NCBI GenBank assembly: GCA_965287045.1
Contig: OZ336872.1
Coordinates: 27,404,001 to 27,468,000 of the forward strand
Direction of reading: 5' to 3'
Length of the DNA stretch: 64,000 bases
DNA from: Carcharhinus amblyrhynchos
Lineage: Eukaryota
Notes under the pieces: model-generated
What the model saw: the letters and a program-made list of their open reading frames with translations, nothing else
What the model was told of the DNA's origin: nothing
The model's database searches: none
Translations under genes and position numbers: made by a program
Part shown: positions 660 through 26,420 of the stretch, piece after piece
Position numbering within the stretch: position 1 is the first letter of the stretch
How the letters are laid out: every line of letters begins with the position of its first letter

Positions 660-3600
660 ACACTTCCCACATTAATGTCACTGGGATGCATATGATGTTC
701 CATGTGCGAATTCTAGGACATTTCCTGTGTCCTGGATAAACATAACTGCAGGAAGTGTTGTTGCAGGAGCTGCAGTTTTCAACTTTGAGCAGCAGCTGGC
801 ATCACATCTGTGATGTTGAGAGCTTTGTGGATAGCACATTTATAGATGTGGCACCCCACAGCATAGGAATATAGGGAGAGAGGGAATGGATGACCACCAG
901 GTAGTCAAGAAGGAATAGGCAAAGGTACAGGAAATCTCACTCTCTAACCAGTTTTCAATTCTAAAATACTGATGAAAGTGATGGTTCATCTGTAGAGTGC
1001 AGCCAAAGCCAAGTCCATGACACCATAGGTAACTCAGCTGTATATACGGCCACAGGAAGATAACTAGAAAAGCAATAGTGAAAGAAGATTTAATACGGAA
1101 TCAGTGATTCCCATGGCTGCAGGCTGCAGGAGAATGGACATGTACAGAATAGATGGGTTGCACTAAACAGACCAATTTCCTTGCAAAGCAATTTCTTCCT
1201 GCTATTGGGGAAATACTAAGCAGGGTGGGGAAAGCAGGATGTAATATTAGAGAGGGATAGCAAGATGCAATGAGTATTGGGAGAGACAAATTGTAGTTGA
1301 GTATAAAATAGTAAGGTATTGGTTGGGTTAATTGCTCGAGGGAAAGTAATAAAGACAACATCAGGGTTTTGGTGCATGTACTTGATAAATAGGATTGCTG
1401 AATTGCAGATGCAGATAAGCATGTGGAATTATGATGTTGTAGCAATAACGGAGACTTGGATCAAGGAAGGGCAGGATTAGGTTTAAATATTCCTGTATAC
1501 AAGATGTTGAGGAAAAGAGGAGGGAGGGTGGTATTGTTTAGGGAGAACATTGCAGTGCTGGAGAGAAATGGTTTCTTTGAACGGTCAAGAACAGAATCTA
1601 GTTGACCAGAGCTAAGGAACAAATTTCTTGGTGTAGTCTATCAGCCACCAGGTCATGGGAAAGATATGGAGGAAGAAATTTGTAAAGGAATTACAGAGAC
1701 ATGCAAGATTTATAGAGCAGTTACAACGGATGACTTTAATTATCCAAATATAGACTGGGATAATAATAATGTAAAGGGCAAAGAGGGGCCAGAGTTCCTA
1801 GGGTGTGTTCAGCAGAATTTTCTAGGGAAGTATGTTTCCAATCTAACAAGAAAGGAGGCACTGCTGAACCTAGTTCTTGGAAATGAAGTGGGCCAAATGG
1901 ATCAAGTGCCAGTGGGGGAACACACCACTGACAGTGATCATTGTATCATAAGGTTTAGATTGGCTATGAAAAAGGGTAAGAAACAATCCAGAATATGAGT
2001 AATGAACTGGAGAGATGCCAACTTCAGTGGGTAAGAAAGGATCTGGCTAAAATGAAGTGGAAAGAAAGATTAGCGGGCTAAATTGTAACTGAACAATGGA
2101 CTGTTCTAAAAAAGAGCTAGTTCAACAGTCAAGGTATATTTCCATGAAGAGCAAATAAATCGAGCGCTCTCTGGATGACAAAGAGAGATTAAAATGAAAC
2201 AGAAAGAGTGTGTGTACAACAGAAATCAGGTGGATAATACAATTGAAAACCAATGCGAATTTAAAAGGTTCCAATAGGAATTGGAAAAACAAATAAATTA
2301 ACCAAAGAGTATGAAAAGAGACTGGCAGCTACCATAAACAGGAATCCAAAAGTCTTCTCCAGGCAAATAAATAGTAAGAGTGGTTGGAGGAGGAATTTGA
2401 GCAAGACAGGGGAATCTTAGGGGCCATGGCTAAGGTATTAAATTAATATTTTGCACCTATTTTTACCAAGGAGGAAGATGCTATCCAGGTCATGGTGAAA
2501 AAGGTTTTAAAATTGTTAAGCAAAAGATATTGAATAGGCTAAAGTTTAAAAGGCACCAGGGTTGGATGAGATTCATCCAATGATATTGGAAGAAGTGAGA
2601 ACCGGAATTGTGGAGGCACGTACCTTAATTTCCCAATCTTCCTTAGATACAGGGGTGACGTCAAAGGATTGGAAGAATGCAAATATTATATTCTATTCAA
2701 AAATGGGCATTAGGAAAGGCCCAGTAACTACAGGATAGCTAATGTTGACTTGGTAATGGTAAGAGAGCTTTCAGAAGTGATACTATAGGAAAAAATTCTT
2801 ACAGTACTTTGGCAAGTGCAAATTAATTAAGGAAAGCCAGCATGGATTTGCTGAGAAAAAATGATGTTTAACTAACTTTTTTGACATTCTTTTGTTAAGG
2901 TAACAGAGGGTTGATGAGGGTAATGCTGTTGATGAAGTGTACATGGACTCCTAAAAGGCAGATAAACTGCTACACAACAGACTTGTGAGCAAAGTTATAG
3001 CTCATGGAATAAAGGGACAGTAACAACATGGACATGAAATTGGCTGAGTGACTGAGTAGTGGTAATAGTTGTTTTTTTTCAGAGTGGAGAAAAGTTTATA
3101 GTGGAGTTTCCCAGCAATTAGTGTTAAGATCCCTGCTCTTCTTATTATACATTAGTGACCTGGACCTTGGTGTACAGTGCACAATTTCAAAATTTGCAGA
3201 TGATATGAAACTTGGAAGTATTAGGTGGATAGTGCAGAGCATCAGAAGAATACATCTAGGTTAGTGGAGTGGATGGACAAGTAGCAGATGAAATTTAATG
3301 CAGAGAAATGTGAAGTGATTAATGTTGGTAGGAAGAACACGAGAGACAATATAAAATAAGAGGTACAATTCTAAAAGAGCAGAGAGAACTTCTGTTACAT
3401 AGAAAGATTGGAGAAATTATGACTGTTCTCTGTGGAGAAAAGAAGGTTGAGAGGAGACTTGATAGAGGTCTTCAAAATCATGAGCAATATGGACAGAGGA
3501 GAAACTCTGCGAGGATACAGATTTAAGGTAATTGGCAAAGGAAGCAATGATGACATGAAGAAAAGTATTTTCATGCAGTGAGTGGTTGGGATCTGGAATA

Positions 3601-3800
3601 TAGTATCTGAGAGTGTGGTGGAAGCAGGGTCAATTACAATTTTTTATCAAGGAATGGATCATTATGTGAGAAGGAAAATATTTTAGGGCTATGGGAAATG
3701 CTGGGGGAGTGGCACTTGGTCAAATGTTACTTCAGAGGGTCAGCAGAGGCATCATGTGTCAAATGGCCTTCTGTGATGTAACCATTCTATGATTCTATTT
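660..3800 (+). mobile_element. Decayed near-full-length CR1 LINE (ORF1 zinc-finger remnant, ORF2 endonuclease + RT pseudogene)
   Basis: ORF1-like Cys motif ~700-760. EN motifs YDVVAITETW (~1430-1460), DFNYPNIDW, LVLGNE and SDH (ORF 1666-1998). RT motif ISKFADD at ~3184-3204. Many stops and frameshifts. CR1 3' tail cattctatgattct at ~3783-3796. Confidence 0.92.
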
Positions 3801-4019
3801 ATTTGGGAATATCAAATGTCTGTATAAAAAGCATAGATAGATGTTTAGTACAAATACATTTAGGATGCGAACTTGAATTTCATGAATTATACTTTCCAAA
3901 CTAAAATTTTGATTGCAATCCAAGCTGATCATATACCCTGGGGATGACCTTTCTGAAAATCAGATCCTATTTCTGGGTGATTTCAAATCTGCTATCTTAT
4001 CCACTTAGAGTTAAAAAAT

Positions 4020-4510
4020 CCTCAGACAGTTTCTCGCCAGTAGGGGAGGTGATGGGGCTTTAATCGATGGCTGAGAACAGCAGAGAGCACAATTGCGCAT
4101 ATGCAGGTCTCTAGTAGCAGAGACCTGCACCCTGTCGCAGCTGTTGTGGGAGATCATGGTCTATCGCGACCACTCCATCTGCCCCAACTGATCAACCCTG
4201 TGATCAGGGTGACCCCCATGGCCACCCCAATCACCCCCCTTCCTCCCTCCATCAATCCCTGATGCAGACTGCACAATAGCCACTCCCCCACATTACTGAC
4301 CATCTGCCCCAATCTCTACAGTGCCCTTGGCACTGTCCTGTGGTCACTGTCAGGGTACAAGGCTGGCACTGCCCAAGGGGTAACCCCCTGCCCCTAACAT
4401 CCCTGGGGGGTCTCAGTGGTCTCTGGTTCTACCAGTGTGGCCATCGTGACTGGTACCAGTTGCTGGGGACTAGCTGTGATTCTTGCCAGAGAGCACTTTT
4501 CCAGGCAAGG
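4020..4510. repeat. GC-rich interspersed repeat (same family as 1-352 and 25205-26420)
   Basis: Shared gtgcccttggcactg...ggcactgcccaagggg motifs and C-rich tracts. Confidence 0.5.
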
Positions 4511-4514
4511 CCAC

Positions 4515-4582
4515 ATGGGCAAGTGGACTCCGGAAGGATGTTTCCTCTTGTTGGGGAGACTAGAATCAGGAGACATAAGGAA
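4515..4582 (+). mobile_element. Short CR1 ORF2 C-terminal fragment
   Basis: Translates VDSGRMFPLVGETRIRRH, matching the CR1 ORF2 C-terminal RMFPLVGE.RTRGH motif. Confidence 0.7.
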
Positions 4583-4587
4583 AGATC

Positions 4588-5400
4588 TGCTATAAAGTGT
4601 TTATATGGGGAAGCTGGGTGGAGGCACATCAGGTTCATCTATGATTTTGTCCATGGTTGAATAACTTGTCAGCTTTGATGATACTGTGCCTTTAAGAAAT
4701 ATAGTTATAGTATGTTTCTTGTAGGAGTTGATTTGTCTGAAAGAACATAGAGCTCCATGCTGAGACTGCAGGTTAATAACTAATCTTACTAATGGTGTTT
4801 TTGTCGAAATATAGTTAATACAACTGTTAACTTGATTTTTCCCCTAGGATTTCAGAGTAGGGTTTTGATTAGATTGATGACAGGGACCGAATCATGTGCT
4901 AATGAGCGGAGCTAGGTTTTCAAGGAAGATTCCGAGTTCCTCTTTCATTTTTTAAAAAACATGTAGTTTGTTGCCTGGTTCCGAAAGAAGTAAGACGTGT
5001 GTCTTCTCCTTCTTTCTCAAAGTACTTTGAGAACACTAGGACTGGCACCCTAAGTACAGGTGTGTAGGCCTGTGTTTGGCTAACTGATTTTTAAGAGGGG
5101 ATTTAAGTCTGTAAAAGGGATATTGCTTGAATTGGAACTTATCGGGATAGGTAAGCAGTTAAGAATTACATCCTGTTGTATTTAAATATTGTTCAGTTGT
5201 AAAATGTTAAGCTAATTCATTTGTTATAATTGAACTATGTTGTTAAATAAAATTTGTTTTGATAAAAGCTTCCCAGTTTGTCAGTAGAATTGTACCTGAA
5301 GTGAAAAATCATGTCCTCACATTAATGCCAAAGTAGAAAATTGTTGTGGTCTAGTTTAACTTCACAATATAGCTCCGGATTTCTGATCCATACCCTAACA
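4588..5400 (+). mobile_element. Probable solo LTR
   Basis: TG...TAACA termini, AATAAA at ~5246, LTR-like organisation similar to 18712-19792. No clear TSD seen. Confidence 0.55.
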
Positions 5401-6099
5401 CAACACTGAGCATAAATAAACACCATGTGGACAAACTACCAGAATTTTGTCAGTGCCTATTGAGTTGTATCCTAGCATCTCATAGCACCTTTAAGAGACA
5501 AAAAGGCAAAATTGAGAGGGACAAGAATGTTGCATCAACATTCTTCTTCTCTGCTATAACAGTAGCATATGAGGCTTACCATTTCTTCCACTGCTTTTAT
5601 ATTCAGCAGATGATGCTTTGTATTGTTTCTGTGATAAATGCTACTTAATACTTCGTTTAACTGACTTAGGGGAGTTAGTTAGATACAGTGAAGTGTGGTC
5701 TCAACACTCCACTCCTACCAGACCCAAGTCCTCCACTGGATGTCAACCCAGCATTCAGAGATTGGATCACTGTCTTCTGAAGCTGAGCTCTTGCGTAGAA
5801 GATTCTGAGGCAGAAATGCTATCATAGCGCCAATATAGGTGCCATTTAATTCTATTATTTGATTAAGTGATATTAAGTGATTATTTTAGCTCAGGGAAGG
5901 AGGGGAAATTATCAGAAGTATATTAAATCTTCATTTTACTGCTTTACTTCAGGAAGTGAACGCAGAAAATCATGAGATTATGCAACTGAAAAACCACTGA
6001 CACTTTCAAAATCCCAAACTTAGTTGACTTTTGCTGAGCAAAGCATGGATTTACCCTGATCCACTGAAATATGAAAATGAACTAAGTCATTGCACTTTG

Positions 6100-6197
6100 A
6101 AAAAAAAACAAAATTCTGGAAAATTTCAGCAGGTCTGACAGCATCTGTGGGGAGAGAATAGAGCCAACATTTCAAGTCAGAATGATCCTTCTTCAGG
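6100..6197 (-). mobile_element. Fragment of Penelope-like palindromic short repeat with hammerhead-core motif
   Basis: Reverse complement of 6161-6196 reads CTGAAGA-AGGATCATTCTGACTT-GAAA-TGTTGGCTC. Flanks match the copies at 22069-22252 and 62225-62430. Confidence 0.6.
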
Positions 6198-6449
6198 ATT
6201 GATCATATCATCTTACTTTGACCCAGTTTTGGCTTTACCCCCAATCAGATATGAATATTACATAAGAATAAAAAAAAGGCATAGAAGTGCACCTTCAAAA
6301 GCAAGTTAACCTCTGTATAGTATCAGGGTAGGTTTCACAAAGGAAATTATTTCTCCAAGAATAAGGATCAGTGTACTTTCTATTGTGCAGTAACCTTTGT
6401 AGTGTCTCTCAAGTGCAAATGCCTTCCAACCCAATAACAAATCAACATT

Positions 6450-17286: not shown

Positions 17287-18605
17287 GGGCCCAATTTTAC
17301 CAACACTTTGCGCCTGTTTTCTGGCACGAAATCGTGGTAAATTCGGGTGTGAGACCTTTATCGCAATCTGCACCCGTGTCCGTGTAGATCACCACTTTAT
17401 CAAGACCCGCGAATGGATCCATTCTGTGTCCAAATTGGGCATTTGTATGCATTTAAATTGAATTAATGAACTGCCCGTCCAATTCTATCAGCCTTTCCCC
17501 CTTTACCACCATGTTTGTTGATCCGGAATCGTACTTTTAGGGACATGCTGAATAAAAGTCTGAGTCGGGTGCTCCAGCCTCTGAAGAGAGCGTTCAGTGT
17601 TCTCTGACTCAGATCAGTGTTGGGGGTGGAGGGGGGGGGAGGCGGGTCAGATCATTCTCTGGTTGGAGGAGGGGAATGAGGTCAGATCATTGTCTGGTTG
17701 GGGGGGAGGAGGAAGAGGTGGGTCAGATGTATCTCTGGCAGTGGGGGGGGTGCTGATCATTGTGTGGGGGGAGGCCTGATCATTGTCTGGTCGTGGTGGG
17801 AGAGGCCTGATCGTTGTCTGGTGGTGGGGGGGAGGGCTGGATCATTGTCTGGTGGTGGGGGAGGGTAGGAGGCAGGTCAGATGTTCTTCTGGAGGGGAGG
17901 GAGAGTGAGGCCAGATCATTCTCTTTGGGGGGGGGGGGGGGGGGAGCACAGCAAGTTCGTTGTCGGGGGTGGGGGGGGGGTGGAAGTAAGGCCAGATCAT
18001 TGTTTTGGGGGGGGGAGGAGGATGGAGGCGGGTCAGATGGATCTCTGATGGGGGGCAGGGGGATCCGCTGCAGTTTGCGGGTGATTGGTCTGGGCAGTGG
18101 GGGGGATGGATAAGGGGGCAGTCATGTGCATGTGTCCCCCTTATCTACCCCCCTGCACTACCCACACACATCAATGCCCCCCTTATCCACACCCCCACTA
18201 CCCAGATTGATCGTCATCCCTGCCCCCCTCTCCTTCATCGATTGCCCTCAGAGAGGAAGCGGACCCCCCTGCCCCCCACCAGAGATCCATCTGCACCCCC
18301 CAAGATACATCTTACCCGCCTCCCTCCTCCACCCCCACCTAAGGTATATCCTCGCTCCCAGTTTTCGCTCCTGCTTTCTCCGCTTTCTACGACTCGGGAG
18401 CGATCTGACACGGGAGCGCTTTTTCCAAATTTTTTCTAATTGTAGTTCAGAGCTCTGTTCGTTCCGGCAGCACTAAGCTCCACCCACAGCAGGAATCAGA
18501 CTGGAGATGGCTGAGAGCGTATGGGGGCACCTGAAAGCAGGTTTCTAAGTCGGATCTGTACTACGCCCAGAATCAGCACTTAGAATCAAAATGGTAAAAT
18601 CGTGG
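17287..18605 (+). mobile_element. PIF/Harbinger-like MITE with internal G-rich minisatellite
   Basis: TIRs GGGCCCAATTTTACCA / TGGTAAAATCGTGG. Inverted homologue at 45596-46469. Confidence 0.65.
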
Positions 18606-18711: not shown

Positions 18712-19792
18712 TGTTATACCATATATTTACCGCCAAATGGACTGTGGATATATTCCCATTGTTTGGAAATAGTGCTGCTTTAAAGAACTGATAGCTATAT
18801 TTGTGAATATTAGAAATGAGGTATAAGATTAAGCTTAAGATTAATTTTCAGTTAAAACTTGAGCTAGCTTTGTGTTAAACAAAGATGCCTGCATGTCAGT
18901 GGATTTGATTTCACTTTAAACTGTGCCTGCATTGTAATCGAAGATTTATGACATAAAATCAGTTACGGGGTGAAAATACTAAGTGTTGCTTAGCAAACAT
19001 GAGGCATATGCTGAAGAATAGAAGCATTTGGGTTCAGTTTGAAACCAGGTGTCTGAGAACAAGGTAGTTCTGTCAAAAATCACCAGTCAGACAGGACAAT
19101 AGAGTAAGGGACAGAAACTAAGTACCACAAGCTAAAGAGTAATTAGTTCTAGAAACCAGATGGTGAAAGTGGAGTCACAGGAAGACTGAGTCAAAGGATG
19201 AAGAACTGGAATCTGAACCAGTTACTGTTCACTGAAATTAAGACACTCCCAGTCACAGACAGAGCTGTGCGGTGCAGATTTGATGAAGTGGTCAGCAAGA
19301 AGTCAGGCATTTGAAGTAATCCTAAGGTTCTGGACACCTTAATACAGCTTGTGAAGCAGTGGTGTTTTGTTGGCATGGCTGGGTACCAAGTATCTGGGGG
19401 AGGTGACGAGAAATCCATAGAAGTTGAATTGGGTGGCATCTGCCACTTGGTTTCAGAGTGTGGTATGTTTGACCTATTGGTCTACATGAACTGTGTATTT
19501 ACTGAGAATATTAAAGTAGAACATTAGAGTTTAAGACATTTTGTATCTTGTGTAATGTTTATAGATCTGTGTGTATCTGTGAAAGTGTATGGAAGTGAAG
19601 AAGTTGTGTATTATAGTTAATTTTTTCTTGCTGAATTATTGTTTTATTCTTTTGTTAAAAGTCAACCTGTAGTCTTGCGACTCCGTTCATAAATACTTCT
19701 AAATAAAAAAGTAGAAGTAATGATCCACTGAGCCAAATGGTCTGTTCTGGGATCTGACTGTCCAATAGTAACGTCAGCTGGAAATTATAACA
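18712..19792 (+). repeat. 5' LTR
   Basis: TGTTA start, TAACA end, AATAAA at ~19702. Roughly 80% identical by eye to ~23715-25044. Confidence 0.85.
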
Positions 19793-20037
19793 GAAGCAGG
19801 AACTCTTGTGGGATTTTTTGAAATTTGAGAGCAGAGTTTTGGATGCTGATTAATAATAATTCATCAGGATCTTTCGATATATGGACAATAAGTTACTGGA
19901 CACTAGATAGCAAAACTGGGTGTGGGATTAATTGTCATTTAGTGGGATCTGTGAATCCTTAAAGAAAAGGTCTGTGGCGGTACTGGACATGGGAACTAGA
20001 GTTGCTGTGAGGTAAATTATATGGGTTGGAATCCAAA

Positions 20038-21670
20038 ATGGCATTGGAAGTTGCTAAGGCTTTTCTAAAGATGGAAGATGTAATCCTGCCTTGTTTATGG
20101 AAAGTAATAAAGAGCCAGTGGGGTGAGAAGATCAGTTGCAGTTAGGATTACCTGTAAGGGTGAGCAAAGCAGACGTAGTTAAAATAAAAGTGCAGCATTT
20201 GAAATTGCAAGGTATGCCTGAGTGACAAACTTCTACAAGAGATGATGCACTTGATTTGGCTAGGATTCAATTAGCAATGAAAAGAAAACCTGAACTGGAG
20301 GCAAAAGAAAAGGAAAAAGAGCACGTCAAATGGAACAAACAAAAAGACAAGAGAAAGAAAAACAAAGGGAATTTGACATGTGAAAACTTAACTTGCAGAG
20401 CTGGCTAAGGAGGAATGAGAGAAGGAGAAAGACCCGGAGGTGAGGTAAAACTTATTTCCGGATAAGAGGCCAATGAGAAGCTTAAATTTAAAAAATTTAA
20501 ATTTATAAAAGCTCTTCCAAAATTTGAGGAAAATGATATAGATGATTCTTCATTATATTTGAAAAGGTAGCTAAACAAATGGAATGACAAAAAGAAATGT
20601 AGAAATTACTATTACAAAGTAGGTTTGTAGAGCTCATGAAGTGTCTGCATCAATACCAGAAGAGGCATTTGTAAAATATGATGCAATTAAAAAAAGCTAT
20701 CTTTAATTCGTATGAATTGGTTCCCGAGGTATTCAGATAGAAATTTTGGAATATACGGAAATGGCCCAAAAAGATCAACATTGAATGCAAAAGAATAAAG
20801 CAAAATAATTTTGATCATTGGATGCGGGAATTAAAGGTAGAAATAACATGGGAAGCTCTGAGGAAAGTAATTATCTTGGAAGAATTTAAAGACGCTCTTT
20901 CTTTGGCATCTGGGACCCATGTTGAAGAATAGCAGTGTTAAAATGGCAAGACAGGCAGTAAATGTGGCTGGTGACTATGAACTGGTCCATAGAACCAAAC
21001 CTTTGTCCCATCATCTTTACAAACCTGAGAAGGATAGGAAATGGAATGGTGAAAGGAAGTGAGGTAGCCCGGGAAGAGAAGAAACAGTTGGGAATGGTCA
21101 AGAAATTTCTGCTTAGATCAAAAAAGAAAGCACCGAGGGTGGAAGTGCCATTCAGAGGCCTATATGTTTCTATTGTAAGAAAGTAGGACATATTCGGGCT
21201 GGTTGCTGGAAACTATATGGGAGGCCACTTGCAGTAATTGGAAAGGTGGCGCCTGAAAAGGAAATGGCTGTTAAAATTGTAGCAGTGGTACACGTGAAAC
21301 ATTCTCCCTCAGAATCTCTGAGAAAGGGGGAATATGGTTCATGATGTTTCAGAGAATTCCTCAAATATTGGTGAGTGAGATCAGGCTATTCGAGACTTTG
21401 TTTTGAAGAGAGATGTGTTCCTTTATTCCTCCAACAAAATAAGTAAACAAACCAATTTTCTGAGAAATGTTGGGATAGAATTCTTGTTGATAGCGCCTGA
21501 GAATACACTTTATATTCCAGATAGCTTTATATTAATAAGGAAGATTAATTGAATGTGTCAACTTAATTTAAGAAGTGACTTTGTAAAAGGAATTGTTATT
21601 GTGAGAATTATTTTAAAATTGCCTGTGGGGAAATAAATGTTATCCTGATTAAAAAATGATTTGGCTAGTG
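20038..21670 (+). pseudogene. Decayed gag (SCAN-like capsid + CCHC knuckle) and protease of the LTR element
   Basis: MALEVAKAFL start. ALPKFEEND, EKVAKQME, YELVPE.FR.KF and EALRKVIILEEFKDAL are SCAN-like. CFYCKKVGHIRAGC at 21165-21206. Protease-like LRSDFVKGIVIV..LPV..NDLA at ~21570-21670. Confidence 0.85.
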
Positions 21671-21780
21671 AAGATGGTAGTGTGGCGACAACAATATTGC
21701 AAGACAGTTGATCCTGTTGATCTTAACTGATTTTTCAAAACTAATGTAGACAAAATGAGACACTTGTTGCAGATAACAAA

Positions 21781-22376
21781 CAATTGAAAGAAAATCTGAT
21801 TAACATAGAAAATTAATTTTCATGTGTGAAAGAGGAGTTTGCTAATGAAGAAAAAGAGAATTGATGAGAATAATTCAGAAGCAATCATGGAAAGTGGAAT
21901 ACTTGACTGAGCACTTGAATTGTCTAAATGATGAACTTAGAAAAGCAAAGTTAGCAAGGTTGATCTTCAGTTAAAATTTGATGAAGTTAAAAGTATCTTA
22001 AGTCTCTATGAAGTACTGCAGAAAATATCTTGAACAGGAATAGGAATTGTTAGTAAATCAGCATACTTCATTGAATAAAAGCAAAATATTGCGGATGCTG
22101 GAATCTGAAACAAGAACAGGAAATGCTGGAAAATCTCAGCAGACCTGACAGCAGTTCTGACAAAGGGTCATCTAGACTCAGAACATTGGCTCTATTCTTT
22201 ACCCACAGATGCTGTCAGACCTGCTGAGATTTTCCAGCATCTTATGTTTTTGTACTTGGTTAAATGCAGAATTGAAAAACAAATTTAGTGGACTGTTAGA
22301 ACTTCATTATGAAAAGAATAATGAAGTCCTTGAACTTCAAAGCAGACTGGAGAAAATGAAAGAGAAGATGGAGGTG
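21781..22376 (+). pseudogene. TPR: Intronless, decayed fragment similar to nucleoprotein TPR N-terminal coiled coil, captured in the LTR element
   Basis: Frameshift-corrected translation [101 protein letters not shown] aligns collinearly with recalled human TPR [104 protein letters not shown]. Confidence 0.8.
22069..22252. mobile_element. Palindromic Penelope-like short element inserted into the TPR-like fragment
   Basis: Inverted arms atgctggaaaatctcagcag / ctgctgagattttccagcat. TACTT direct repeats at 22064-22068 and 22253-22257. Removing it restores the NQHT-WLNAE frame. Confidence 0.8.
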
Positions 22377-22581
22377 GGGGGTATGGATTAAAAGCTATCT
22401 CTTTTAAAGTTGCTCCTGTGAATAAAAACAAATGGCTAAATCTTTATCTATTTGAGTAAAGAATTGATGCAAGTAATATTACTGAAGTGGATATCAGCAA
22501 TGGACAATAGGAAAAGAACTCAAGTACCTGCAAAATTAGAAGTTACAAAAAGTCAACGAAAAGGTCTGAAATTATAATATT

Positions 22582-22709
22582 GGCCAGAATTTTCTCATCC
22601 CACCTGCCACTGGAATTTTAATGGTTGGGTTGAGGGCAATGTGAAACCCCCTTAACAATTGGGTGGGAATTTCCGGCTTGTAGACTAGCGTGGCTGGAGA
22701 ATTTTGCCC
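22582..22709. mobile_element. Short MITE
   Basis: ggccagaattttct...agaattttgccc terminal inverted repeats. Confidence 0.55.
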
Positions 22710-23365
22710 TCCAGATCAATGACCTGGGACACTGATTTAAAGGTGTTTGTCAGTAGGAATACACATGATGTAGATGTTTGGATATCGGCAAATGGGCAGT
22801 TTGTAAAATATCATTCAAAACCTGTTGAGGACTGGACTGATGTAGTTCATATATTATGTAAAAGAGTTGAAGAGTTAGAACAAAACCATGAAACTTCAGA
22901 GGGAGAAGGTAATTGATGATGCTGAAAAGAAGTTGAAAAGGTGATGGGATTTGGAGAAACGAAAAAATCATTTATAAGTTCAAAGATCAAACTGAGCTGA
23001 AATACAAAACACTTGAGTGAATATAAGAAGCTTCATAGCAACATCCTTGAAACAGCTAGCAGATTTTGACCAGAAAATAAGTGACTTTGCTAAATCAATA
23101 TTATGGTTTACCACATTTGAGTTCAACAAATGCATCAAAGAATGGAACTATGCCTTTAACAAAAAGGATGATTGGACAGTGAATTTAAGTGAAACATTCT
23201 TTTCCAAGTTAATAGAAAAACTGGGAATAAGAAGAAAAAGACTTCTGTTGCAAAATTGCTGTTAGGTTTATTGCCTTTGTTGTGGTTAAATCTTTGCAAT
23301 GATTCAATATGATGCATAGTTTATGAAATAAGGTAGAGCGATTACTTCAATGAAAGACACAATGG

Positions 23366-25044
23366 TGTTATGCATTGAATGGTGTTAGGAAAGAGAGTTG
23401 GTTTAAATAATTAGTATTTGTGTTTATTAGAATGAAGTATAAGTTAAACTAATTTGTATTTCTCAGGGGTGGGGGGGGAGGTGAGAAGGCAGGATTCTCT
23501 GGTCAATCCTCAATGTGTTTTGCGTAGCAGGAAGTGGCACTCCATTTTCCAGCAACAGGATTTTCTGGTCACTGCTGTCAATGGGATTTCCTATTGACTG
23601 CACCCCATGTCTCTGGGAAGCCCATGGTAGTGGTACATCGTTGGTGGGTGCAGGAGATCCCACCAGTGTGAACACTCGGACAATTCAGGCACGGCACTCA
23701 TGTGCTAAGAAAAGGTTAAAACTTTAGTTAGCTTCATATTGAACAAAGGTACCTGCATGTCTGTGGGTTTTGGTCTCACTTTAAACCATGCCTGCTTTGT
23801 AATCAAAGGTTTACGCTGTAAAATCAATTGTAGAGGTAAAATAATGGGATGTTGCTGAGCAACCAGAGACCCACACTGAAGAGTAGAAACATTTGGGTTT
23901 ACTTTGGAACCACGTATCTGAGAAGAATACAACTTTCACAGAAACTGCCTGAAATAAGGGACAGAAACCAAATCCTAGAAGCTAAAGAACAGATAGTTCT
24001 CGAAACTAGGGGATGAAAGAGGAGCCCCAGGAAGACTGAGTCCAAGGGACCAAGAACTAGAATCTGAACAAGATACTGTTCGCTAAAGTTAAAGGGGCAG
24101 AGAGAGAGGCTTTCAGTTAAAGATAGAGCTGCAATGTGTAGACCTGATGAAGTCAGCTAGCAATAAACAAGACATTTGAAATAATCTTAAGGTTGGTGAT
24201 ACCTTAATTTAGCCTGTGCAACAGTGGTGTTCTGTTGGCATGGCTGGATACCTGCAAGATTTCTATGAAGCTTGGATACATGTGAAATCCAAGGCAGAGA
24301 TATATTAAAAGGAGAGTTTGAAATCCTGGATGTGGAACCCTGGCGAAGACGCCTAATACAAAACATTGTATGGGAGAAGATTTCAAAGTGTGTTCTTTGA
24401 GACTGGTGATTGGAAACCGGTGTGTGGAAGTTAAAATTCCAGTGAGACAGTTGGTTCACAATGTAACAAGCGTCTGGGAGGATTTGATGAGAAATCCACA
24501 GAAGTTGAATTGGTGGCATCTGTCACTTTGTTTCAAAGTGTAATGTGTCTGGCCACATTTCACTTATTGGTTTACCTGGACTGTGTACTTACTGACAGCA
24601 TTAGAGTTTAAGATATCTTGTATCTTGAGTAATCCTTATAGATCTGTGTCTATCCGTGAAGTTTTAGTGGAAGTGAAGGAGTAGTGTATTATTGTTAATC
24701 TTTACTTGTCGAATAAAAGTCCAAAGTCGCGCAGGTCAGATGGATTGATCATGCCAAACTCCTCTTTAGAGTCCTAAAATTTATAGATTATGGGGATTAG
24801 CAGGGATAGAGCCTGGGTAAAATTCTCCTTTGGAAAGTTGGTGCAGACTCAATGGGCTAAATGGATTCTTTCTGCACTGTATGGATTCTATGAAAAGTTT
24901 TATTATTTTGTTAAAAGTCAATTGGCCATGCCCTGACTCTGTCATACAGATCTCCAAACAAAATATAAAAGTTATGATCTATTGGGCCAGGATTCTGTTC
25001 CGAGGTCTGACTGTCCAGCAATAATATCAGCTGGGACCGTAACA
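23366..25044 (+). repeat. 3' LTR (left boundary uncertain: 23366 or ~23481), interrupted by a MITE (~23487-23690) and a SINE fragment (~24718-24893)
   Basis: Collinear homology with the 5' LTR, ending cgtaaca. The purine run at 23465-23480 could be the PPT. Confidence 0.75.
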
Positions 25045-25204
25045 CCATTTAAGTAACTGACGTTGACAATGTAAGCAGTTGCAGGGCTAACTTCATTTAA
25101 TTATGGTATGTTGTTAAAAATAACAGTATACATGAATCAATGGATGGAAACAAAACAATAGTTGCATATCCCGGATAATGCAAATTTATTTACGCAAGGG
25201 AATA

Positions 25205-26420
25205 CTGGGGGGGGTGAGTGGTGATTCTCCCAAAGAAATTCTAAGTGTTGAATTCATGTGAAAACTGGACTAAATCACGCTGTTTTTTTTCAGCGGGAGT
25301 TTGAAAATGAATCTCCCACATTCCGTGCACTGCAAAGTGCACTAGCGTAAATCACACTGAAAACCAGTGGGTAGGACTGGAGAGGCTGGCAGCATAGCGC
25401 TGAGTGTACCCGGTCAGGCAGCACAGAGATTGGCCCTTGCCTACTGGCCTCCCGATCGCTGGCTAGCTCGATCATTGACCAGCCCTGTGACCACCCCCTC
25501 CACATTGCTGGCTGTGCGACTCCCCTATGGCCCAATCACTGGCTCCCAGACCATATCCAGGCCGAGCTACGAACCCCTCTCTCCCCAATACCATCACTGC
25601 AGTGCCAACCCTCCCCGCCTGCAGTCCTGCCCCCCTCATCCCCAGACCACCCTGATCTTGACCTCCCTCCTTCCCGCTTCAATGCTGTCTGCAGACTGGC
25701 AGCAGGACCCACCGATTGTCCCACCAATGTTTTCTATTAGGGGTCTTCGCCAGGGATCCACATCCAGGATTTCAGACTCTCCTTTCAATATATCTGCCTT
25801 GGATTTCACATGTATTCAGGCTCTGCCCCTATCAGGCCTCACCCACCCCCCCCATATGCTCTGCGTCCTTGGCACTGCCCCATACCTGATGGGCAGTGCC
25901 AAGGTGCCCCCAGTCATTGGAATTTTCCCCCTTGGGCAGAGCCAGGGGCACAGACTGGCACTGCCTAGGTGCCAATGCCCAGTGGCACCCCCTGCTGATC
26001 AATCCTGTGGGGGGCCCCAATTCCATCCTTCCCTCCCCCCTTCACTCCAGCAGGATCAGGCCATCAGCTTCCTGAAAGTGAGGAGTTATTGTAAACTGTG
26101 CTGGAGTGAAATACTCCTAGCTGGAGACATGGTGGGAGGGGTGGGGAGCGTAGGAGGAGTGTTGAGGGAGTGGCTAGCGGGCCCAGAGGCTTCAACCCCT
26201 GGCCCGCTAATCATGTTTAAATTATACTAAAATCTGCCCCTGCATACCTAAAGCAAATCTGCACCTATTTTTGGCGTGGAGCTGATGGCGCCAGAAATCT
26301 GGCACTGGAAGAGGTGCTCAGGTCCGGATGCTTAGCGTGGATTGGGCTAACCTGGACCTGCTGAAATCTCCCAGCCCACTGCAGTAATAAATTAGCACAA
26401 TGGGATGAGAGAATCACCTG
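25205..26420. mobile_element. GC-rich MITE-like element containing an inverted piece of the neighbouring LTR
   Basis: ggtgattctccc / gagagaatcacc inverted ends and family motifs as at 4020-4510. Insert at 25725-25820. Confidence 0.6.

Follow-up and report, generated by a model that had tools for sequence, protein, structure and literature searches.

A decayed, non-autonomous Gmr1-type LTR element family in a shark genome with a captured TPR coiled coil in frame with its protease

Acutely transforming retroviruses carry Gag-onc fusions made from spliced host mRNA, have lost pol and need a helper. A different kind of fusion is represented by TPR-MET and TPR-NTRK1, in which the coil of the nucleoporin TPR forces the kinase into a dimer. 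In general, host-gene capture by vertebrate LTR elements is described as uncommon and mostly concerns signalling genes in a few retroviral copies (PMC4299795). The same account describes CrocERV29 and CrocERV31, germline LTR elements with captured host mRNA (KIT-ligand and nectin3, respectively) and signs of selection; these are retroviruses with 6-9 described copies, where a separate ORF at or near env encodes signalling or adhesion proteins, and it also mentions the loss of viral domains upon host-gene capture (PMC4299795). Finally, Gmr1 elements have IN placed before RT, according to 10.1101/2025.03.03.638093.

The family described here resembles each of these systems in part. Like Gmr1-like Ty3/Gypsy elements, it has a SCAN-type gag, a zinc knuckle and a protease in one frame; unlike them, it is non-autonomous, with host TPR and an orphan region, X, in place of IN, RT and RNase H. 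Like CrocERV29 and CrocERV31, it is a vertebrate germline LTR element that captured and copied a host mRNA. Unlike those two, it is a Gypsy element of at least 136 copies, the captured gene is a nucleoporin fused in frame to the protease, and several rounds of in-frame trimming followed. With the Gag-onc retroviruses it shares the joining of spliced host mRNA in frame with Gag and the loss of pol, but those are short-lived, somatic and carry oncogenes, whereas the TPR family is long-lived and germline. As in TPR-MET and TPR-NTRK1, an N-terminal TPR coil is joined to a dimeric enzyme. In contrast to those somatic fusions, where TPR is N-terminal to the kinase, here it is C-terminal to the protease, and residues ~31-103 are absent. 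The literature searched, which included few subscription journals, contained no account of a retroelement capturing TPR, and a Repbase or Dfam entry may exist. The family is a real, apparently undescribed variant of host-gene capture; the evidence for a long-lived in-frame fusion is good, and that for its function is weak.

The copy that was analysed lies in a window of 64,000 nucleotides, the whole stretch of DNA under study, at G000:C3:27404001-27468000 of Carcharhinus amblyrhynchos. Its features, in window positions, are the following.

18760-25044: whole element, of Gmr1 LTR type and decayed, flanked by a 4-bp target duplication
18756..18759 and 25045-25048: target-site duplication CCAT, flanking both LTR ends
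18760..19792, + strand: 5′ LTR, TG...CA
19796..19816, + strand: decayed primer-binding site
20200..21240 (start approximate), + strand: gag remnant with a SCAN-like capsid region and a CCHC zinc knuckle (21165-21206)
21420..21684, + strand: aspartic protease remnant, catalytic D-x-G column at ~21466
21685..21775, + strand: captured TPR residues ~1-30, starting at the position of the TPR start codon, in frame with the protease
21787..22076, + strand: captured TPR residues ~104-198, exons 3-6 joined
22077..22252 (176 bp), no strand assigned: palindromic repeat of very high copy number, inserted later
22253..22385, + strand: captured TPR residues ~196-237, including the PF25481 match, ending ~14 nt into host exon 7
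22386..23260, + strand: region X, an in-frame orphan coding region of ~250 codons
23383..25044, + strand: 3′ LTR with three later insertions

The two LTRs are 80% identical (K2P 0.23 over 1198 aligned nt), and a purine tract lies just upstream of the 3′ LTR in several other copies. The primer-binding sites of two copies, L103 and L121, are ones we take to be tRNA-Pro-like (16-17 of 20 positions, by eye), and no tRNA was called in the 2 loci scanned. Most of the 116 exact matches listed for a tRNA-Pro-like 17-mer fall within 0.1-3.7 Mb of contig G000:C43, probably a tRNA gene array. GC-rich tandem-like repeats are found on both sides of the element (17622-18600 and 25210-26200), which suggests that it inserted into an older repeat.

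The window gag is homologous to the SCAN-positive gag of the relatives L186 and L190. A gag frame from the family (L120) matches SCAN-positive relatives with an E of ~1e-14; taken alone, it has no Pfam match. The zinc-knuckle cysteines are kept in 75-84% of copies, and the catalytic column of the protease has D in 59% and G in 82% of 34 copies. Queries for IN and RT, taken from relatives, matched 0 of 88 TPR-bearing copies, and 5-9 of 20 relatives. The same holds for 20 loci selected by their LTR, mostly solo LTRs, where neither an IN or RT match nor an LTR-sharing helper was found. A single RNase H match (L093) is ~3 kb off and on the opposite strand. Judged by its sequence, the family is a non-autonomous LTR element without IN, RT and RNase H. 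A preliminary description of the window had placed the TPR fragment directly after the protease remnant, on the same strand and in place of pol. Its position, inside the LTR pair, is borne out; the replacement extends to IN-RT-RNase H, and the protease was kept.

The order SCAN-PR-IN-RT-RH is found in the relative L190, the only place where IN before RT was seen; both enzymes are absent from the TPR family. At L190, positions 1400-5600 hold a Gmr1 element that is broken but almost complete, with SCAN gag, PR, IN, RT and RNase H; many other relatives exist, in a genome with 1105 gag candidates. Elsewhere, L177 (128-3016, minus strand) has long open frames similar to gag, protease and RT, which point to another retroelement in a better state of preservation.

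The captured fragment is evidently TPR and not a generic coiled coil, because it matches both a TPR-specific profile and TPR itself. When 21702-22442 was translated with stops written as X, the Pfam family PF25481 (Nucleoprot-TPR) matched 22254-22373 (E 7e-11, 42.5 bits, cut-off 27). Whale-shark TPR aligns through residues 125-218 with 21852-22124 (E 1e-14) and through residues 196-234 with 22254-22370 (E 1e-7), and it was the sole match among 292 candidates in a database search with a better-preserved copy. Thus, the collinearity with TPR put forward in the preliminary description is upheld, and the profile searches returned specific TPR matches where generic coiled-coil matches alone would have spoken against it. 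A PDB search with the window frame gave no match, and a protein search with the PR-TPR frame gave no relative of similar length. The extent of the fragment had been placed correctly in the N-terminal region, but its beginning had been missed: TPR starts at the start codon, ~21685, with residues 1-30, followed by two in-frame deletions (162 and 39 nt) before residues ~104-237. A Met is present at the start-codon position in 50% of 44 copies. Residues 1-30 match above shuffles in 12/20 A1, 10/27 A2, 5/7 B3, 0/5 B1 and 0/11 B2 copies (the groups are presented below).

The insertion within the TPR part, first described as 184 bp with a TACTT duplication, is present but is better read as 176 bp with a diverged 13-bp target duplication (22064-22076 and 22253-22265), because 13 nt of the other copies align with both flanks. 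The repeat is absent from the other aligned copies, and its insertion appears to be specific to the window locus. The element insertion together with the inner repeat is also found in the genomes of two other organisms, at ~97% identity. This palindromic ~176-bp repeat also occurs at 6102-6201 of the window, and its copy number is enormous (summed contig depth >300,000).

The host TPR gene was located at C9:56.26-56.34 Mb, and its exons 1-14 were mapped with AG/GT boundaries. The alignment of the window copy crosses host exon junctions 3/4, 4/5 and 5/6, at which the host introns measure 8440, 1092 and 3265 bp, so the earlier remark that no intron-sized gap is present agrees with the exon map. 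Among copies covering both sides of these three junctions, the intron is absent from 40/40, 49/51 and 68/68; over the whole range from 2/3 to 8/9, the junctions are spanned in 9/9, 40/40, 49/51, 68/68, 32/32, 25/25 and 12/12 copies. The joining of several host exons without introns points firmly to capture of a spliced host mRNA. At the 3′ side, TPR homology ends within 1-3 nt of the end of host exon 12 in 5 of 16 copies listed (L076, L078, L083, L160 and L161), hinting at a capture junction set by a splice or an intron-terminated transcript. The B tail was also considered as a retained host intron 12, and no score rose above shuffles.

An intronless sequence could also be a processed TPR pseudogene inserted into an already dead element. 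This is almost certainly not the case, as the copies number at least 136 and have junctions and deletions in common, TPR is joined in frame at its start codon and is followed by coding-like sequence instead of poly(A), and TPR lies downstream in 10 of 20 loci picked by gag. What had been named as the counter-case, a single-copy piece with its own poly(A) and target duplication, differs from the at least 136 copies with shared junctions that were found.

Those copies were counted in the 2.9 Gb genome with host exon 6. Of 338 candidates, 150 were scored and 137 places were found, the host gene itself included; the family therefore has at least 136 copies. A total of 88 unique copies were examined, with the near-duplicates L010 and L144 left out of counts and 11 of the 88 in no group. 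When loci were chosen by gag alone, 10 of 20 had TPR downstream. Conversely, gag or PR lies upstream of TPR in 36/48 A copies by tblastn, and by profile in 3/5 B1, 7/8 B3 and 0/16 B2 copies. The captured TPR thus seems to have been propagated with the element, and the proposed transduction of spliced host TPR by a Gmr1-like family, as an intronless, in-frame Gag-PR-TPR fusion, is supported. Near-identical pairs of copies ~40-90 kb apart (L107/L005 at C12:17.87 and 17.77 Mb; L122/C3:109288561) suggest local segmental duplications.

When the TPR part is placed in a tree rooted on the host, subfamily A (50 rows, SH-aLRT 100) lies inside an older grade, B, and A plus B3 has a support of 91.5; the window copy falls, by its sequence, in subfamily A. 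Terminal branches are 0.14-0.24 long, and therefore every copy is old and broken. TPR extends to residue ~465 in B1 and B3 copies but only to ~237 in subfamily A. Deletions of 96 and 186 nt are shared across the B groups, and the 5′ deletions of A are common to B3, which points to one capture. The core, residues 165-233, is common to all five groups, including those with an altered upstream context; B2 has lost 39 codons of it. Upstream of TPR, B2 has other, unclassified sequence, with no Pfam match in the 3 copies scanned, which possibly represents a second vehicle or further captured genes. In four B2 copies (L077, L155, L074 and L170), the ~0.3-3 kb upstream is coding-like, rich in lysine and glutamate and common to subsets of copies, without detectable gag or protease.

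At sites variable among shark TPRs, the copies side with the galeomorph residues G101, I108, V139 and E211, and they do not have the host-side changes R101, T108 and N141. Because of these galeomorph residues, and because the X family is also present in a catshark, the capture most likely took place after the galeomorph-squalomorph split, with subfamily A in place before the catshark split, well over 100 million years ago. Transfer between sharks may be an alternative to descent.

Region X, which the preliminary description had not noticed, is a non-TPR coding region that continues the frame to ~23260 and is interrupted by another repeat at ~22580-22710. In the window's subfamily, it would have taken the place of the TPR tail beyond residue ~237. 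Its predicted fold is an unstructured start of low confidence followed by one long helix (pTM 0.40), and the TPR part retains heptad periodicity, which X shows as well. Searches with X gave no Pfam match above the cut-off, no PDB match and only low scores in a protein atlas. Its profile had 3 matches among 1.84 billion representatives, all of them predicted proteins of this family from Scyliorhinus torazame, a catshark, one of which begins with the TPR-X junction. X was also considered as an integrase or linker remnant, and this was rejected: the X profile had no match on 20 Gmr1 relatives, B copies or TPR proteins. A linker query from L190 matched 0 of 88 copies.

Across copies, gag, PR, TPR and X form one frame of ~830 codons, from ~20530 to ~23260, with no column where half or more of the copies have a stop; the other frames have 34-63 such majority stops each. 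Upstream of 20530, copy coverage is low and the frame register is unclear. The check for an open gag-PR-TPR frame thus yielded one that also includes X. Stop-free stretches persist in natural copies over gag-PR (L099), PR-TPR (L107, 173 aa) and TPR-X (L097). Where stop-type codons form the majority in B2 and B3, the host codon is CGA and the copies have a mixture of TGA and CAA, the pattern that CpG decay would give.

Of the eight deletions that copies share in the TPR part, seven have a length divisible by three and one is a 143/144 tie; among private deletions, some of which are variants of shared ones, the figure is 9 of 23. With a null of one-third, P is ~0.003. Nevertheless, microhomology in codon-periodic sequence favours in-frame deletions (46-60% for 3-6-mers), and consequently P weakens to ~0.06 under a 55% null. 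On the branch to A, 44-48 substitutions brought 0 fixed stops or frameshifts, compared with ~9 breaks per 100 in copy decay (Poisson P ~0.02); as the copies were partly found by TPR profile, the decay counts may be slightly biased. Fixed changes of A1 hit 9/67 TPR-invariant and 16/43 variable sites (p 0.005, or ~0.01 when weighted by mutability), invariance being that of bony-vertebrate TPR and only sites where the host has the galeomorph state being used. A2 gives 15/70 against 21/44, a result not independent of A1. Changes after insertion are near equal at the two kinds of sites (24% and 28%).

Amino-acid replacement rates are less telling. On element branches, N/S is 1.9-2.4, compared with 2.35-2.8 for neutral decay, without a significant difference (p 0.4-0.9); leaving out CpG sites, the ratios are 0.43-2.2, all non-significant. 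NG86 dN/dS values of 0.3-0.6 were discarded as a sign of purifying selection, since a neutral control gives the same values, and by BLOSUM the fixed changes show no significant leaning towards conservative replacements. For TPR104-233, the A1-A2 ratio is 0.72-1.9; for gag it is 0.37-0.58 and for PR 0.21-0.34, although the last two rest on small counts with p 0.04-0.44. Constraint looks stronger on gag and PR than on TPR and X, and the purifying A1-A2 ratios suggest that the protease apparently still mattered. Thus, the proposed comparison of dN/dS gave a divided answer: N/S is near neutral on the element lineage, but the frame and the residues invariant in TPR were retained preferentially. The picture is one of relaxed, structure-like selection on a translated coil.

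These data bear directly on whether TPR had any task. It might have been captured by accident and carried as a passenger, with the frame kept open since an early stop lengthens the 3′ UTR and leads to nonsense-mediated decay, or since X needs translation. Near-neutral N/S on the TPR part, its repeated trimming, including the 39 core codons in B2, and the replacement of its tail by X fit this explanation. It is, nevertheless, rather unlikely, although it deserves to be taken seriously: amino-acid changes avoid TPR-invariant residues, the 165-233 core is kept in all five groups, and a stop or deletion straight after PR would have been a simpler solution.

A task at the nuclear pore was part of the preliminary description, which proposed a docking module. 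In this scheme, the TPR piece would tether particles or pre-integration complexes at the nuclear basket. The mapped contacts of human TPR with the basket are the ZC3HC1-binding domains ZBD1 (aa29-88) and ZBD2 (386-481) and the NPC-binding domain NBD (450-606) (10.64898/2026.10.08.757499), and a Nup153 site is modelled on TPR 390-620 (PMC11392808). B1 and B3 copies do reach ~465, at the edge of the NPC-binding region that includes L458 (PMC3258255). However, ZBD1 is deleted, ZBD2 is cut in B by a 62-codon deletion, NBD is mostly or wholly missing, and TPR 110-377 showed no ZC3HC1 binding in a two-hybrid assay (10.64898/2026.10.08.757499). As subfamily A ends at ~237, the window's subfamily has neither ZBD2 nor the NPC-binding domain. 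Pore docking is accordingly very unlikely, and for subfamily A it appears largely refuted.

A dominant-negative decoy was the other proposal of the preliminary description. In this alternative, a released TPR coil could pair with host TPR and weaken the nuclear retention of unspliced element RNA. Depletion of TPR raises the export of unspliced CTE RNA, a control that needs localisation at the pore (PMC3258255), and the idea draws as well on PMC5035971. The kept TPR-invariant residues fit such pairing, and B2 keeps the core without gag. By contrast, the fragment contains no mapped docking domain, A2 differs from the host at ~35% of amino acids and is a poor fit to a heterodimer, and N-terminal fragments of TPR stayed mainly in the cytosol and restored retention instead of blocking it (PMC3258255). 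We regard a decoy as improbable. The same low standing is given to an anti-TPR weapon, a protease-released coil that would loosen RNA retention, even if it would explain how the coil outlived gag in B2 and moved between vehicles.

We favour, tentatively and at a little under an even chance, a reading in which the TPR coil of this decayed, non-autonomous Gmr1-type copy served as a self-dimerising polyprotein tail in place of IN/RT, over passenger, decoy and pore docking. The preference arises because the docking domains were deleted or never present, and what remains is a self-pairing coil after a dimeric protease. Spliced TPR mRNA took the place of integrase-RT-RNase H within one Gag-protease-TPR-X frame, and in-frame deletions trimmed successive subfamilies. 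Capture would have occurred by template switching onto co-packaged TPR mRNA, and an autonomous Gmr1 helper would have mobilised the element in trans. The parallel TPR coiled coil would pair Gag-PR molecules and so keep protease activation and particle assembly going once the dimerising domains of IN/RT were lost, the principle of TPR-MET applied to a protease. Both the self-pairing of the coil and the boost to the protease are predicted. Short N-terminal TPR fragments homodimerise (10.64898/2026.10.08.757499), and when a leucine zipper follows HIV-1 protease, both the multimerisation and the cleavage of Gag-PR increase (PMC3291649). The same zipper harmed particle yield (PMC3291649), which counts against a dimeriser, as do the near-neutral N/S, the BLOSUM result and the lack of an LTR-sharing helper among the 20 LTR-selected loci. 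Moreover, the 16 B2 copies that have the TPR core without detectable gag or PR are unexplained by a protease-dimerising role.

In practical terms, these copies produce more than 100 false TPR domain matches in the annotation of the shark genome. Beyond this, a Gypsy element took a nucleoporin, fused it to its protease in frame and replicated it through at least five sequence groups. The result is a fossil record of the trimming and retention of a captured domain, and a counterpart in nature of the oncogenic fusions of TPR. The family makes two questions testable: does a Gag-PR element that is non-autonomous require a substitute dimeriser, and does TPR hold retrotransposons in check in the germline of vertebrates?
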